Positions 1 to 7,579 are shown, counted from the stretch's first letter. The stretch is DNA of 21,074 bases from a virus (IMGVR_UViG_3300000358_000077), one strand, 5' to 3'. Notes: a model not told the origin generated them from the sequence alone. Numbers and translations are program-made.

Positions 1-1143
1 CTATGCTGTTTTGATATCTACGATAATCCAGTCTTTACCACGATCATCATTGTATCGGTCGGTCATTTTTCTGGATTTATGACCTAACAACTTTTGCGTA
101 TCCAGCCCCTGTTCCCGATATAACCGTTCTGACAGAGATCGCTGCTCATGAAATGTGGGCGCAGTTCCTGGCTCCCATTTTATGCCACATTTTTCCCTGG
201 CCTTTTTAAAAGCCGTTGTAAGAGTATTTGCAGAAACCTGGTCTCCTCTGTTTGCTTGAGAGGTAGTGTGACGGTAATGGACCAGATATTTACTAACAAC
301 AGCATCCCTGCACTGAGATATAACTTCACGAAGGGTAATATTCAGAGCATCGCATTTCAGGCTAAGCGGAATAGCAAGTTTTGAACCGGTTTTTTCCTGA
401 GTAATGTGCAACATGTCGTCCCATATATCAGAGAATTTCAAATTGCAGATATCGCCTAAACGTTGTCCAGTGACAAGAGCAAGTAGCATCCCGCATTTTA
501 AATAGGGCTGCCGTCTGCTTACGCTGTCAAATATTGCCTGCCATTCGGACAGTGATAATCTTTGGCGGTTTACTCGATTTCGCGGTTGTTTTGTTGCCTG
601 CGCTGGGTTAAATCCTGGCGGAACATGTCCTGCGTGTTGTGCTTCTTTGAAGACGTCGATCAACACCATTCTCACGACTTGCGCCATCCTGTTATGACCT
701 TCAGCCTTTACAGCATCAATTATTTCGGCAATATCAAGTGCGGTAATATCCTTGAGGTGTTGCATTCCACAATGCTCACGGAAGAGACGAATGGGTTTGC
801 CTTTTTGCCGATAGGAGTTGGGTCTTAGTTCATTATGTTGCAGCCTGTCCTCCTGGATAGAAATATATTTATCAAGCCATTCTGTCACCGTAATGTCTGA
901 GCGCCTGCCTTTCATTCTTTCCAGACGCTCATTGACGCTTAATATTTGTCGGGTACGTTGTTCAGCAATAATGGTATTTGCTTCAGTAGCAACCTGTTTT
1001 GCTTCATTCTCATCAGTTCCTAAACTATGAAAACGACCGGATAGTGGATGTTTGTATTGCCAATATACCTTTCCGGTTCGCTTATCTAATTTGCAATATA
1101 AATTGGGTATAGAGATTTTGTGAGATCGGGGTCTAGCAGCCAT
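1..1143 (-). CDS. int: Lambda-family tyrosine recombinase (phage integrase), 380 aa
   Basis: Full ORF with ATG at 1143..1141 and stop at 3..1. C-terminal region has the tyrosine-recombinase pattern (HEQRSLSERLY...LLGHKSRKMTDRY) resembling lambda Int, but the protein as a whole is not lambda Int. Overlaps the upstream xis-like ORF by 11 nt. Confidence 0.9.
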   Translation of the reverse strand: MAARPRSHKISIPNLYCKLDKRTGKVYWQYKHPLSGRFHSLGTDENEAKQVATEANTIIAEQRTRQILSVNERLERMKGRRSDITVTEWLDKYISIQEDRLQHNELRPNSYRQKGKPIRLFREHCGMQHLKDITALDIAEIIDAVKAEGHNRMAQVVRMVLIDVFKEAQHAGHVPPGFNPAQATKQPRNRVNRQRLSLSEWQAIFDSVSRRQPYLKCGMLLALVTGQRLGDICNLKFSDIWDDMLHITQEKTGSKLAIPLSLKCDALNITLREVISQCRDAVVSKYLVHYRHTTSQANRGDQVSANTLTTAFKKAREKCGIKWEPGTAPTFHEQRSLSERLYREQGLDTQKLLGHKSRKMTDRYNDDRGKDWIIVDIKTA

Positions 1144-1369
1144 CAGCGATTATCCGTTGGAGTTTTGGGTTTGCGTTGATTGGGAGTTGCGGTTCTGCAA
1201 GCGTTCCTACAAAACGGGAATTTCGGTCAATCATCCAGTAGCGACCAACTTTTATAGCGGGTGGGGCCATCATTTTCCCTTGCGCGTATTTTTTCAGAAC
1301 TCGCTCACTTGGTGCTAAGTCCCCAAATTCTTCTTTAGCCCAGTCCTGTAAAGTGATTAGTCGAGACAT
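1133..1369 (-). CDS. xis: Putative excisionase / recombination directionality factor, 78 aa
   Basis: Small ORF immediately upstream of and overlapping int (typical xis-int arrangement). ATG at 1369..1367 is preceded by an AGGAGG Shine-Dalgarno. The sequence is not lambda Xis; the assignment is positional. Confidence 0.55.
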   Translation of the reverse strand: MSRLITLQDWAKEEFGDLAPSERVLKKYAQGKMMAPPAIKVGRYWMIDRNSRFVGTLAEPQLPINANPKLQRIIADGC

Positions 1370-1449: not shown

Positions 1450-1525
1450 NNNNNNNNNNNNNNNNNNNNNNNNNNNNNNNNNNNNNNNNNNNNNNNNNNN
1501 NNNNNNNNNNNNNNNNNNNNNNNNN
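1450..1525. other. Run of 76 N (unresolved or masked sequence)
   Basis: Literal N characters in the sequence. ORFs called across it in the six-frame track are artefacts. Confidence 1.
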
Positions 1526-1579
1526 GTCATAGAGATAAATTTAATGCTGAGAAATGCAGTATTGAATTTATCAATTTTT

Positions 1580-2134: not shown

Positions 2135-2161
2135 AATAATAAAAAAGGAGCCTGTAGCTCC
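2135..2161 (-). terminator. Putative rho-independent terminator for leftward transcription
   Basis: GGAGC-CTGTA-GCTCC hairpin at 2147..2161, followed on the minus strand by a U-rich tract (plus-strand AATAATAAAAAA at 2135..2146). Lies just downstream of the 71-aa gene. Confidence 0.45.
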
Positions 2162-2183: not shown

Positions 2184-2399
2184 TCACCGTTCCTTAAAGA
2201 CGCCGTTTAACATGCCGATCGCCAGGCTTAAATGAGTCGGTGTGAATCCCATCAGCGTTACCGTTTCGCGGTGCTTCTTTAGTACGCTACGGCAAATGTC
2301 ATTGACGTTTTTATCCGGAAACTGCTGTCTGGCTTTTTTGATTTCATAATTAGCCTGACGGGCAATGCTGCGAAGGGCGTTATTATGTTCTATTGTCAT
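2184..2399 (-). CDS. Hypothetical protein, 71 aa
   Basis: ATG at 2399..2397 with a GAGG Shine-Dalgarno 5 nt upstream, starting 7 nt after the stop of the 250-aa gene. The longer ORF in the track (2184..2537) overlaps that gene and is probably not the true start. Confidence 0.45.
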   Translation of the reverse strand: MTIEHNNALRSIARQANYEIKKARQQFPDKNVNDICRSVLKKHRETVTLMGFTPTHLSLAIGMLNGVFKER

Positions 2400-2406
2400 A
2401 TTGGCC

Positions 2407-3159
2407 TCACACTTCGAATGCCAGTTGAGGGGTAAAGACGTCCCGTTCAGCGTTGTAATTAAGTGAACTGGCACTGTTGAATGATTCAATGCGTTCCACA
2501 AGAACTTGCGTACGGGTTTCTTTACTTGCGGGAGCATATGGCGAACCTACCCAGGATTTGTCGATGCCTATATTTCTTGCGACGTTCGTGCTGTCTGCAG
2601 ACGAAAGCGGTACATGAGTAAAAATGTCTTTATTTAACATCCGTAACCCATGAATCTTGGTGATTGGGTAGCCGTACTGATCTACAACATGACGTATAAG
2701 ATCGCGTAGTTTAGCCCGACACGCTCTCGGTCGTTTTGCATCGTATTCCCCCATCGAGCCGATGCAGACGCGGGGAAACTCATGGCACAGACGAATAAAT
2801 CGCTCATCCGGTTCGTTCATGTGCCACACCGGAGCACCAATAAATTTACCGTGAGGCCATGCCGCAATCAGGGCGTCATTCTCTTCACTGGTTCTGCCGA
2901 TAACATCCGGGATAACCGCGAATGAGAAACGAGGGTGATTACCCCAGCGTTCAACAAATCTGTAATATTCATTCCAGTCTATGGCCTTGTTTTTTGTCCA
3001 GAATGTGAATGCACCATTATCAAGAGCAAATGATTGGGTGACTTCGGAAGCCAGATCAATCTGAGCTGGATTAGCAAAACTGATGAATGCGTGTCTGCCT
3101 TTCCAGGCTTTCAACGCACAGGTATCGGGAGTTATTGGACCACCGTGAAAATGAATCAT
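2407..3159 (-). CDS. Hypothetical protein, 250 aa, function unknown
   Basis: ATG at 3159..3157 preceded by a GGGAG Shine-Dalgarno. The start overlaps the stop of the upstream 52-aa ORF (ATGA). No motif I can assign with confidence. Confidence 0.6.
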   Translation of the reverse strand: MIHFHGGPITPDTCALKAWKGRHAFISFANPAQIDLASEVTQSFALDNGAFTFWTKNKAIDWNEYYRFVERWGNHPRFSFAVIPDVIGRTSEENDALIAAWPHGKFIGAPVWHMNEPDERFIRLCHEFPRVCIGSMGEYDAKRPRACRAKLRDLIRHVVDQYGYPITKIHGLRMLNKDIFTHVPLSSADSTNVARNIGIDKSWVGSPYAPASKETRTQVLVERIESFNSASSLNYNAERDVFTPQLAFEV

Positions 3160-3314
3160 ACACTCTCCCGTTTATTATTTATCTCCTCAGCCAGCCGCTG
3201 GGCTTTCAGCGGATTTCGGATAACAGAAAGGCCGGGAAATACCCAGCCTCGCTTTGTAACGGAGTAGACGAAAGTGATCGCGCCTACCCGGATATTATCG
3301 TGAGGATGCTTCAT
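3156..3314 (-). CDS. Small ORF, 52 aa, translationally coupled between exo and the 250-aa gene
   Basis: ATG at 3314..3312 overlaps the exo stop (ATGA); its TGA stop overlaps the ATG of the 250-aa gene. Not in the ORF track because it is under 60 aa; found by reading the minus strand. Same position as lambda orf60a. Confidence 0.4.
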
Positions 3315-3991
3315 TGCCATTGCTCCCCATATACAAAACCAATTTCAGCCAGTGCCTCGTCCATTTTTTCGATGAACTCCGGCACCATCTCGTCAAAACT
3401 CGCCATGTACTTTTCATTCCGCTCAACCACGACATAATGCAGGCCTTCACGCTTCATGCGCGGGTCATAGTTGGCAAAGTACCAGGCATCTTTTCGCGTC
3501 ACCCACATGCTGTACTGCACCTGGGCCATGTAAGCCGATTTTATTGCCTCGAAACCACCGAGCCGGAATTTCATGAAATCCCGGGAGGTAAACGGGCATT
3601 TCAGTTCAAGGCCGTTGCCGTCACTGCATAAACCATCGGGAGAGCAGGCGGTACGCATACTTTCGTCGCGATAGATGATCGGTGATTCAGTAACATTCAC
3701 GCCGGAAGTGAACTCAAACAGGGCTCTGGCGTCGTTCTCGTACTGTTTTCCCCAGGCCAGCGCTTTAGCGTTAACTTCCGGAGCCACACCGGTGCAAACC
3801 TCAGCAAGCAGGGTGTGGAAGTAGGACATTTTCATGTCAGGCCACTTTTTTCCGGAGCGGGGTTTTGCTATTACGTTATGAACTTCTGAAGCTGTGATGA
3901 CGCCGAGCCGTAATTTGTGCCACGCATCATCCCCCTGTTCGACAGCTCTCACGTCGATCCCGGTACGCTGCAGGATAATGTCCGGTGTCAT
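3311..3991 (-). CDS. exo: Lambda exonuclease (Red-alpha), 226 aa
   Basis: Protein [40 protein letters not shown]... is near-identical to lambda Exo as I recall it. 4-nt overlap with bet. Confidence 0.95.
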
Positions 3992-5833: not shown

Positions 5834-6787
5834 TTATTCGAATGGAAGATCTATTTGCCTTTGAGGATTCAACTGTTTTTTTACATGCTCAATTTCGAAT
5901 ATGGTTTTTATGGCATCTCCGATCATATATTGAGTTACTTTTAAATCTACAAGTAACATATCACCTTTAGAAAAATTTAAGGTGTTGTTATCAATATCGC
6001 TGATGAATTTCTGGTCTTTTATTTCAGCCAAAAAGCTACTGGCACCATCAGAAAACCGCCACCGGCTTCCTTCATTGAAGGAAATATTTTTAATTTGAAG
6101 GGCTTTCTCTACTGTGTACTCTGAAATTATTGATTCTGCTGGTAGATTGACTTTGAAATAATGTGCTTCTTGCTTGTTGATCGTCATGAATGTCAAACCA
6201 TCATCGACAGTAGAGGCAAAGCTGTCAATGCCTTCCTGCTCTAATGGCTTACTTATAACTTCTTGTAATGAAGAGCGAAGTTTAATATTTTTATAAAGTT
6301 CAATAACGTTACTGTCGTAGATCTCGCTTTCGTCATCAACAAAGACTTCGATGTTGCTATCAGGCAAATTGTGTAATTTTTTTATTTTCCTTGGACCTAT
6401 CCATTTTATCAGTTGAATTAGGCCTTTGCATATTTTTTCTTTAGAACCAGGACAGAGTCCAATAAAAGCAATCAAATTCGCAGCGGCTGTTGCTGAATCG
6501 CCGGATAAAAAATCAACAGCCTGTTTGAACCAAGATGTAGATGAGGCAACCAGATCTATTCCAAATGAGCCAGCTTTAAATGATGCATTGACTTTTACAG
6601 AAACAACAGTCTTGTTTCCGTAGAGAGTTTTACCGGCTTCCTCTAATGCATCTGATAGTGATAGAAGGGCAGGAGCAAGGTCTCGCACGTTCATTTCATG
6701 CGTTTCCAGTGCCGGACCGTCGTATACTATCCTGAACTTCATATCATTGGTTTCCGAATTGTTGCCCGCATCCATTATGGCATTCAC
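5834..6787 (-). CDS. Hypothetical protein, about 317 aa, in the rexA/rexB slot downstream of cI; function unknown
   Basis: Long ORF co-oriented with cI, followed by its own terminator, visibly AT-rich relative to flanking phage genes. Start is ambiguous: GTG at 6787, ATG at 6775 or ATG at 6742, none with a strong Shine-Dalgarno. No recognisable motif. Confidence 0.65.
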   Translation of the reverse strand: MNAIMDAGNNSETNDMKFRIVYDGPALETHEMNVRDLAPALLSLSDALEEAGKTLYGNKTVVSVKVNASFKAGSFGIDLVASSTSWFKQAVDFLSGDSATAAANLIAFIGLCPGSKEKICKGLIQLIKWIGPRKIKKLHNLPDSNIEVFVDDESEIYDSNVIELYKNIKLRSSLQEVISKPLEQEGIDSFASTVDDGLTFMTINKQEAHYFKVNLPAESIISEYTVEKALQIKNISFNEGSRWRFSDGASSFLAEIKDQKFISDIDNNTLNFSKGDMLLVDLKVTQYMIGDAIKTIFEIEHVKKQLNPQRQIDLPFE

Positions 6788-6848: not shown

Positions 6849-7541
6849 CTACCCATGCTTCCTATACGTCTGCGGCATGCTCCCAATAACCTTACCGAAG
6901 ATGAACACCCGGTTCATCTCGTCTTTCTCGATCGGGTCCCAAGGTGAGTAGCTCTTGTTATCAGAGATAACCAGCAGCTTATCCTTCATCATTTGCAGAC
7001 GCTTTACATGGGCTGTGTCGTCGTACAGAAACGCATAGATACCATCACCGTCGAAAGATTTAACCGTGATATCAACGAACAGCAGATCACCTGGTTCGAT
7101 CGTTCCTGACATGCTGTCACCACGCACGTTAATGATGCGGATATTTTCCGCCTTCCTGCCATCGAACATGTGACGAGCATCGTCAAACGAGTACTCAACC
7201 GAGCGTAGAACTTCTACAAACTCACGATTGATGACACCCGGCCCGGCACTGACTTCTATATCAAGAACGTCAATCTTGAAGTATTTGGAATGGTTGACAG
7301 CAGGCTTCCCTGATTGTTGACCGTCATTTCTCATCGGGCCTATGCCTGATGAGAGCCACTCAGTTCGAACACCCAATGCATTAGCTATTTCAACAATTTT
7401 TGTTGAGCCGCGCGCGTTGCCGCTTGTCAGTCTCCAGATTGTGGGTTGAGCTACGCCAGACGCCTTTGCAAGAGCGCCTTGAGACATTCCAGATTGTTCC
7501 ATCGCTAGGTTTAAGCGATCAGCAAGAGTTTCTTTTTTCAT
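6849..7541 (-). CDS. cI: CI-type immunity repressor (N-terminal HTH, C-terminal S24 LexA-like peptidase domain), 230 aa
   Basis: HTH-like segment GMSQGALAKASGVAQPTIWRL. C-terminal domain has the autocleavage-type serine (RGDSMSGTI) and lysine (AHVKRL) motifs. ATG at 7541..7539 sits close to the predicted pRM start (near-leaderless, as in lambda). The track ORF to 7577 uses an upstream TTG. Confidence 0.85.
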   Translation of the reverse strand: MKKETLADRLNLAMEQSGMSQGALAKASGVAQPTIWRLTSGNARGSTKIVEIANALGVRTEWLSSGIGPMRNDGQQSGKPAVNHSKYFKIDVLDIEVSAGPGVINREFVEVLRSVEYSFDDARHMFDGRKAENIRIINVRGDSMSGTIEPGDLLFVDITVKSFDGDGIYAFLYDDTAHVKRLQMMKDKLLVISDNKSYSPWDPIEKDEMNRVFIFGKVIGSMPQTYRKHG

Positions 7542-7579
7542 AAGTTTTAATTTATACGCTCGCGTATTGATGGTCAAAA

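Follow-up and report, generated by a model that had tools for sequence, protein, structure and literature searches.

The window analysed here, the whole 21,074-nt stretch of viral DNA (IMGVR_UViG_3300000358_000077), is the left half of a lambdoid prophage. On the minus strand its genes run in the order int (1..1143), xis (1133..1369), DUF4222, a DksA/TraR-like gene of the zinc-finger type, an orf61-like gene, a dpdA-like gene, orf60a, exo (3311..3991), bet, and gam, and the repressor, O/P replication, Q, and lysis genes lie farther right. The subject of this study is the dpdA-like gene (2407..3159, minus strand), the product of which is a 250-aa TIM-barrel protein that we place, with high confidence, in the TGT superfamily as a 'solo' phage DpdA. 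An earlier note on this DNA had located the gene in the int–exo accessory region, and it is indeed packed in the early-left array between exo and xis. The coordinates given in that note were exact; the strand, which it left unstated, is minus.

The ORF is intact in the window sequence, with 250 codons running from ATG to TGA. Direct reading of the sequence places a Shine–Dalgarno element, GGGAGAG, at 3163..3169 (minus); in the coding direction, 3160..3172 reads AACGGGAGAGTGT and runs straight into the ATG of the dpdA-like gene, with 5 nt between the end of GGAG and this ATG. The upstream neighbour and left border of the slot is orf60a/DUF1317 (3156..3320, minus; PF07026, E 2.1e-33), the TGA of which (3158..3156) overlaps the ATG of the dpdA-like gene (3159..3157) as ATGA. 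The downstream neighbour and right border is a 71-aa orf61-like gene (2184..2399, minus; phrog_303, E 1.5e-33), and 7 nt separate the TGA of the dpdA-like gene (2409..2407) from its ATG (2399..2397). The labels orf60a and orf61 are taken from the PhiR30_1 record. The GGGAGAG element, the ATGA overlap upstream, and the 7-nt gap downstream bear out the earlier description of a well-formed, translationally coupled gene.

The longest orf61-like ORF is a 117-aa reading (2184..2537, minus) that shares 131 nt with the 3' end of the dpdA-like gene; this form is annotated in Shigella phage SfI as gp33 (L001 6085..6438). Because the 71-aa form, with its ATG at 2399, matches both phrog_303 and the 71-aa orf61 of PhiR30_1 end to end, the 117-aa reading is probably an over-call. 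Beyond the orf61-like gene, a consensus scan found a terminator-like hairpin, GGAGCTACAGGCTCC then TTTTTT (2147..2161, minus), which is a pattern match only. A consensus scan of the minus strand upstream of the dpdA-like gene for a promoter of its own found nothing above chance, and we therefore rejected moron-type expression from such a promoter in the lysogen. From synteny, the dpdA-like gene appears to be expressed early from pL together with the red genes. The lack of an own promoter, the terminator-like hairpin after orf61, and the exo–xis literature are all consistent with this; exo–xis expression is reported to begin in the first phase of lytic development (PMC8614690).

The dpdA-like ORF is a genuine gene and not a chance ORF, because more than 6000 clusters at 90% identity contain homologous proteins of about 250 aa and because 894 representatives of 50%-identity clusters match the family at E<=1e-3 in an exhaustive HMMER scan. 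At 99% identity or above it was found in 100 of 5426 complete E. coli genomes, in all of which it is intact and 99–100% identical. Throughout the E. coli matches listed, the PGAP label is "hypothetical protein". The composition of the gene gave no distinctive signature of recent insertion (GC 0.45–0.52 versus 0.41–0.55 in the flanks).

Several other features of the window were recorded. At about 1450..1530, between xis and the DUF4222 gene, the bases are masked (N), which gives X in three frames, and this segment is unreadable. A 317-aa ORF without a Pfam match (5834..6787, minus) separates the early-left region from the cI-like repressor gene (6849..7577); it occupies the rexA/rexB position of SfI and lambda and is a candidate for a prophage-expressed exclusion or defence gene. 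At the cII position (7904..8449, plus), in place of a lambda-type cII, is a gene with a YdaT_toxin domain (PF06254, E 3.4e-30). Two large genes (10879..12426 and 12786..14084, both minus) sit between P (9528..10229) and a NinB-like gene, opposite in strand to the replication/nin genes. They encode a 515-aa HD-domain protein and a 432-aa protein with DUF4041 and T5orf172/MUG113 (GIY-YIG-like) domains, and resemble a pair of defence-type morons inserted into the nin region.

The dpdA-like gene looked "unknown" because Pfam, NCBIfam, and PADLOC returned zero matches for its product, as did the PDB sequence library when searched by phmmer with the single sequence and with two family profiles. The earlier note had left the family unknown, a verdict that can now be replaced, since PHROGs, profile–profile, and fold comparisons assign the protein clearly. 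The PHROGs match was to phrog_887 ('queuine tRNA-ribosyltransferase') over residues 1–245, with E 2.6e-98. At the nucleotide level, the gene and its flanks share 99.1% identity with SfI and with Escherichia phage PhiR5_1. The SfI gene for YP_009147480 shows 99.1–99.2% identity to the window gene, and RefSeq labels this ortholog 'queuine tRNA-ribosyltransferase'. Both YP_009147480 of SfI (NC_027339) and YP_007151699 of phage HK106 are catalogued as DpdA in Supplementary Data 1 of Hutinet et al. 2019 (PMC6884629), where they fall in the group with DpdA present and the preQ0/G+ synthesis genes absent.

More distant comparisons point to the same family. A BLASTP comparison with the solo DpdA of Salmonella phage 7-11 gave 35% identity (E 3e-35). 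A profile built from 60 diverse members of the dpdA-like family (A2) was aligned by hhalign to the DpdA of phage 9g over 154 columns with a probability of 98.2% (E 5.5e-14), pairing LDNGAF with LDSGAF, PVWH with PCFH, KIHG with KVHG, and SADS with SCDS. The family is also linked to 9g DpdA by tblastn at E 1e-5 in a small database. Neither the Pfam TGT model (PF01702) nor TGT sequences matched the protein, and hhalign of the family profile against the single E. coli Tgt sequence gave no signal (1.9%). The validated 9g DpdA likewise has no PDB sequence match, so that a missing TGT sequence match reflects divergence and not exclusion. Given the lack of an E. coli Tgt signal, the link to TGT therefore rests on the fold and on the bridge through 9g DpdA.

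The fold was examined with an AlphaFold2 model built from 51 homologues (mean pLDDT 83.5, pTM 0.84). The predicted alternation of strands and helices is that of a TIM barrel, and the (beta/alpha)8 barrel of the model is nearest to TGT-family structures. Foldseek searches of the PDB gave generic TIM barrels at E >= 1.4e-3 and were uninformative. Against predicted viral structures (BFVD) there were 29 matches at E<=1e-3, about one third of them annotated as queuine/queuosine tRNA-ribosyltransferase and most of the others unnamed; those with a functional name are almost all DpdA/TGT-like. A protein of Vibrio phage nt-1, presumed to be a DpdA2, was among them as a weak match (E 1.7e-4). As a separate observation, the top structural neighbour of the model is Cap10 (9ntn_B), a TGT-like accessory protein from type IV CBASS, slightly ahead of bacterial DpdA.

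Together, these data make it very probable that the protein is a DpdA-type member of the TGT superfamily. Within this superfamily it is nearest to the phage DpdA DNA-guanine transglycosylases, enzymes that exchange guanines in DNA for 7-deazaguanines and so evade restriction. The earlier note had held that homology to a housekeeping enzyme with no role in phage–host interaction would tell against its reading. Tgt proved to be a remote fold relative only, and the detectable relatives of the protein are phage DNA-modification enzymes.

Conservation of individual residues was counted over 100 representatives of 50%-identity clusters (all codons that follow are on the minus strand). Asp47 of the LDNGAF motif (3019..3021), the proposed general acid/base, is kept in 97 of 99 sequences and aligns with D72 of 9g. 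Asp85 of IPDVI (2905..2907), the proposed base-recognition Asp, is kept in 98 of 99 and sits right past model strand E78-82; in the 9g hhalign output it is not paired with an Asp, D114 of 9g falling three columns later. His113 of PVWH (2821..2823) is kept in 97 of 100 and aligns with H141 of 9g DpdA. His170 of KIHGLR (2650..2652), present in 91 of 98 and invariant in A2, aligns with His196 of 9g, the position at which the 9g motif KVHGFG places its His; the DpdA2 subfamily has no conserved histidine at position 196 (PMC6884629). Asp189 of SADST (2593..2595), the proposed nucleophile, is kept in 89 of 98 and aligns with D215 of 9g. In the model, D47, D85, H113, H170, and D189 are all found within beta-strands or immediately beyond their C-termini.

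Judged by motif and spacing, D47/F51, D85, H113, and D189 would correspond to D95/F99, D130, H181, and D256 of Salmonella DpdA, the match for H113 being read from its distance to the nucleophile. In that enzyme D95 serves as general acid/base and D256 as nucleophile, and guanine exchange is lost when either residue is mutated (PMC10164549). Likewise, D85 and D189 may be equivalent to D122 and D248 of Cap10, and H170/D189 appear to resemble its H226/D248 pair. The aspartates of a TGT active site (acid/base, base-recognition, and nucleophile) thus appear to be present as D47, D85, and D189. A zinc-binding Cys cluster is absent from the protein, which has cysteines only at 14, 125, 132, and 147 and no Cys/His after D189. 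Because the validated 9g DpdA also has no CxCxxC, a zinc site is not required of phage DpdAs.

We then asked what accompanies the gene. A Pfam scan covering 14 other ORFs (the four neighbours and ten large ORFs) found no FolE, QueC, QueD, QueE, QueF, ArcS, or YhhQ among the large ORFs of the window, and tblastn of the window with FolE, QueD, Gat-QueC, and QueE of 9g found nothing. With no preQ0 genes in the window, the dpdA-like enzyme has to rely on a base that the host makes. With the exception of Clostridium and Mycobacterium, the hosts of DpdA-only phages encode the whole queuosine pathway (PMC6884629).

In other lambdoid phages the flanks are common and the dpdA-like gene is absent. In PhiR30_1 the slot between orf60a and orf61 (L005 2338..2895) is occupied by a DNA adenine methyltransferase of the Dam family (PF05869, E 2.3e-56). 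The occurrence of a dpdA-like gene here and a Dam methyltransferase there suggests that this slot is a small site at which lambdoid phages swap DNA-modification cassettes.

A Vibrio prophage, in its early or int-proximal part, and metagenomic podovirus-like contigs carry relatives with 64–68% identity to the protein. No que genes were found beside the relatives in the Vibrio chagasii prophage, the podovirus-like contigs, or five IMG/VR loci of the DMCA/P0244 clade. Linkage to queD is confined to two cases. In the temperate Caulobacter phage DMCA, the segment L003 4705..5726 carries a QueD-like gene of 98 aa, the PTPS match of which is borderline (22.5 bits versus a Pfam cut-off of 22.4), and a more distant relative, with 39% identity, that begins where this gene stops. 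The metagenomic protein P0244 is a full QueD, with the CxxxHGH motif, fused to a DpdA-like domain. As a side point on both contexts, preQ0 cannot be made by QueD alone.

A 421-aa protein, P0233, joins an N-terminal truncated Dam methyltransferase of the D12 class (profile positions 1–201 of 253) to a DpdA-like part that has no counterpart of the first ~38 residues. Because both halves are truncated, P0233 is probably a recombination scar between alternative modification cassettes or a gene-call chimera. The Dam–DpdA (P0233) and GPD–DpdA (P0267) "fusions" were considered as clues to function and set aside; P0233, with both of its halves truncated, was not taken as strong evidence.

With respect to function, on balance we favour the reading that this is a solo DpdA expressed early from pL that would put a host 7-deazaguanine into phage DNA at a low level and act in anti-restriction. 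The gene would be transcribed with gam–bet–exo–orf60a from pL after infection or induction, and the enzyme would act on double-stranded phage DNA after replication, flipping a guanine out. D189 would displace the guanine to form a covalent intermediate in a double-displacement base exchange, with D47 shuttling a proton. A base from the host queuosine pathway (preQ0 or possibly preQ1), held by D85 and H113, would then re-form the glycosidic bond. The predicted outcome is that a minor share of guanines, probably lying in a sequence motif, would be replaced by dPreQ0 or one of its derivatives, and DNA marked in this way would be harder for the restriction enzymes of the next host to cut. In this scheme the gene, its family and fold, its conserved residues, its position in the operon, and the lack of precursor genes are observations. 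The DNA substrate, the identity of the base, and the level, timing, and protective effect of the modification are what we infer. The suggestion in the earlier note of an anti-defence function is plausible, in that the predicted modification of DNA to block restriction would be one.

Published measurements bear on the level of modification. The 9g DpdA alone in E. coli inserts preQ0 into DNA at 0.03–0.3% of G (PMC6884629). Two DpdA-only phages have been analysed chemically: Orion was unmodified and 7-11 contained dADG at 0.02% of G (PMC6884629). Among the 182 DpdA-carrying viruses of the 2019 census, DpdA-only phages are the most numerous group (76), and the authors of that census observed that solo DpdAs of gamma-proteobacterial phages cluster apart and may have diverged in function (PMC6884629). 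Our literature search for activity tests of DpdAs from lambdoid phages or the solo subgroup found none.

Foremost among the alternatives, and in our view unlikely, is that the same fold serves another substrate, for instance host tRNA or a protein-linked deazaguanine, on which the diverged enzyme would transfer or remove a 7-deazaguanine, so that the protein would be a host-takeover factor or an anti-CBASS/anti-Qat factor. Caution on this point comes from the fold comparison, in which the closest structure, Cap10, works on a protein-linked deazaguanine. A related and similarly doubtful proposal concerns the compact solo clade as a whole, the members of which are about 250 aa long, have no zinc domain and no precursor genes, and occur in temperate phages of Enterobacterales, Vibrio, and Aeromonas. 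These proteins might be base-exchange enzymes with a job other than bulk anti-restriction hypermodification, either placing a 7-deazaguanine 'epigenetic' mark that is rare, motif-specific, and imitates the self-marking of host Dpd systems or, like Cap10, acting on a non-DNA target (tRNA or a protein-linked deazaguanine). If the target were not DNA, the clade could counter defences that depend on deazaguanine, for example type IV CBASS or Qat.

The mark itself could also have another purpose. In Dpd systems the 'self' mark is preQ0, which bacterial DpdA places at less than 0.1% of G, and a DNA-modifying phage DpdA could mimic this mark (dPreQ0/dADG) and so escape Dpd-type restriction, as opposed to giving general protection. 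Low, motif-specific modification is what solo DpdAs seem capable of, and the dpdA-like gene is widespread in enterobacterial temperate phages, those of Salmonella included. However, nothing ties the gene to hosts with a Dpd system; bacterial DpdA depends on the DpdB ATPase, and the formation of dADG on DpdC, and the window encodes neither. We regard this version as improbable, slightly more so than a change of substrate.

The position of the gene between orf60a and orf61 raises the idea that it is a developmental modulator like orf60a, orf61, orf63, and ea22, or a decaying relic, with its chemistry irrelevant in either case. It does lie among the exo–xis genes, which are reported to influence lysogenisation and induction. 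However, the active site is conserved over thousands of homologues and in distant phage types, which argues for selection on catalysis, and a relic is hard to reconcile with a gene that is intact and nearly invariant across 100 E. coli genomes. We thus give this idea very little weight. Less probable still is that the protein is an unrelated TIM-barrel metabolic enzyme, of the aldolase or tryptophan-synthase-alpha type, carried as an auxiliary metabolic gene, since matches to these enzymes are weak and generic while the profile–profile homology to 9g DpdA is specific, the conserved motifs are those of DpdA and not the aldolase Lys or metal sites, and the named BFVD matches are almost all DpdA/TGT-like.

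Low-level modification of phage DNA by a solo DpdA stays our preferred reading. The practical gain from this analysis is a corrected annotation, from "hypothetical protein" to a known family of DNA-hypermodification enzymes. The gene does not represent a novel type of system but is a convenient test case for the role of solo DpdAs. Such tests would be easiest in a lambdoid prophage of E. coli, for which queuosine mutants, induction protocols, and restriction hosts are available, and newly described anti-deazaguanine glycosylases are also available for such work (bioRxiv 10.1101/2025.10.29.685425).

As a comparison with known systems, the protein is one third shorter than Tgt and archaeosine TGT (PF01702) and has neither their zinc subdomain nor their tRNA-binding domains. 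Cap10 (PDB 9ntn) acts together with Cap9, a QueC-like protein, and holds a CD-NTase by its deazaguanylated N-terminus; its resemblance to our protein is one of fold only, with 10% identity and no sequence-level match. No Cap9 or CD-NTase partners were found in the window, and PADLOC gave no match. The DpdA of Salmonella Montevideo (PDB 7ui4) has 413 aa and four insertions, including the 128-residue Ins8 with a structural Zn (PMC10164549), and needs the DpdB ATPase. By contrast, the phage protein, at 250 aa, has no room for Ins8, has no dpdB/dpdC-like genes nearby, and shows no sequence-level match to 7ui4. The Dam of PhiR30_1 (PF05869) occupies the same slot between orf60a and orf61 in an otherwise homologous early-left region and is also a post-replicative DNA modification enzyme, whereas its fold and chemistry are unrelated to those of the dpdA-like protein.

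Within the phage DpdAs, the nt-1 type (DpdA2) is without His196 and cannot be retrieved from DpdA1 by PSI-BLAST, whereas our protein keeps the His and can be retrieved against the DpdA1 of 9g. Because H170 aligns with H196 of 9g, which is absent from DpdA2, the protein is DpdA1-like and not DpdA2-like on the evidence of its sequence. With the validated DpdA1 of 9g/CAjan (Queuovirinae) it has in common LDxGAF, PxxH, KxHG (His196), and S/CDS, and both are without CxCxxC. The two are about 20% identical, the 9g protein being longer (317 aa versus 250 aa) through N- and C-terminal extensions. The 9g enzyme is encoded beside folE, queD, gat-queC, and queE and supports replacement of 25–30% of G, whereas the dpdA-like gene stands alone; the co-encoded FolE, QueD, QueE, and QueC that mark a complete 7-deazaguanine cluster of the 9g/CAjan type are not in the window.

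The closest systems are those that share this solo arrangement, since preQ0 genes are absent from SfI, HK106, 7-11, and the window prophage alike. The 7-11 DpdA (AEK81947), which at 35% identity keeps all of the motifs, is 234 aa long and comes from a virulent 90-kb phage. With HK106 YP_007151699 the identity falls to 36%, across 78% of the length. SfI YP_009147480 is practically the same protein, 99% identical and with the same position and neighbours. The protein is thus already known as a catalogued member of its family, at 99% identity, through the 2019 census, RefSeq, and PHROGs.
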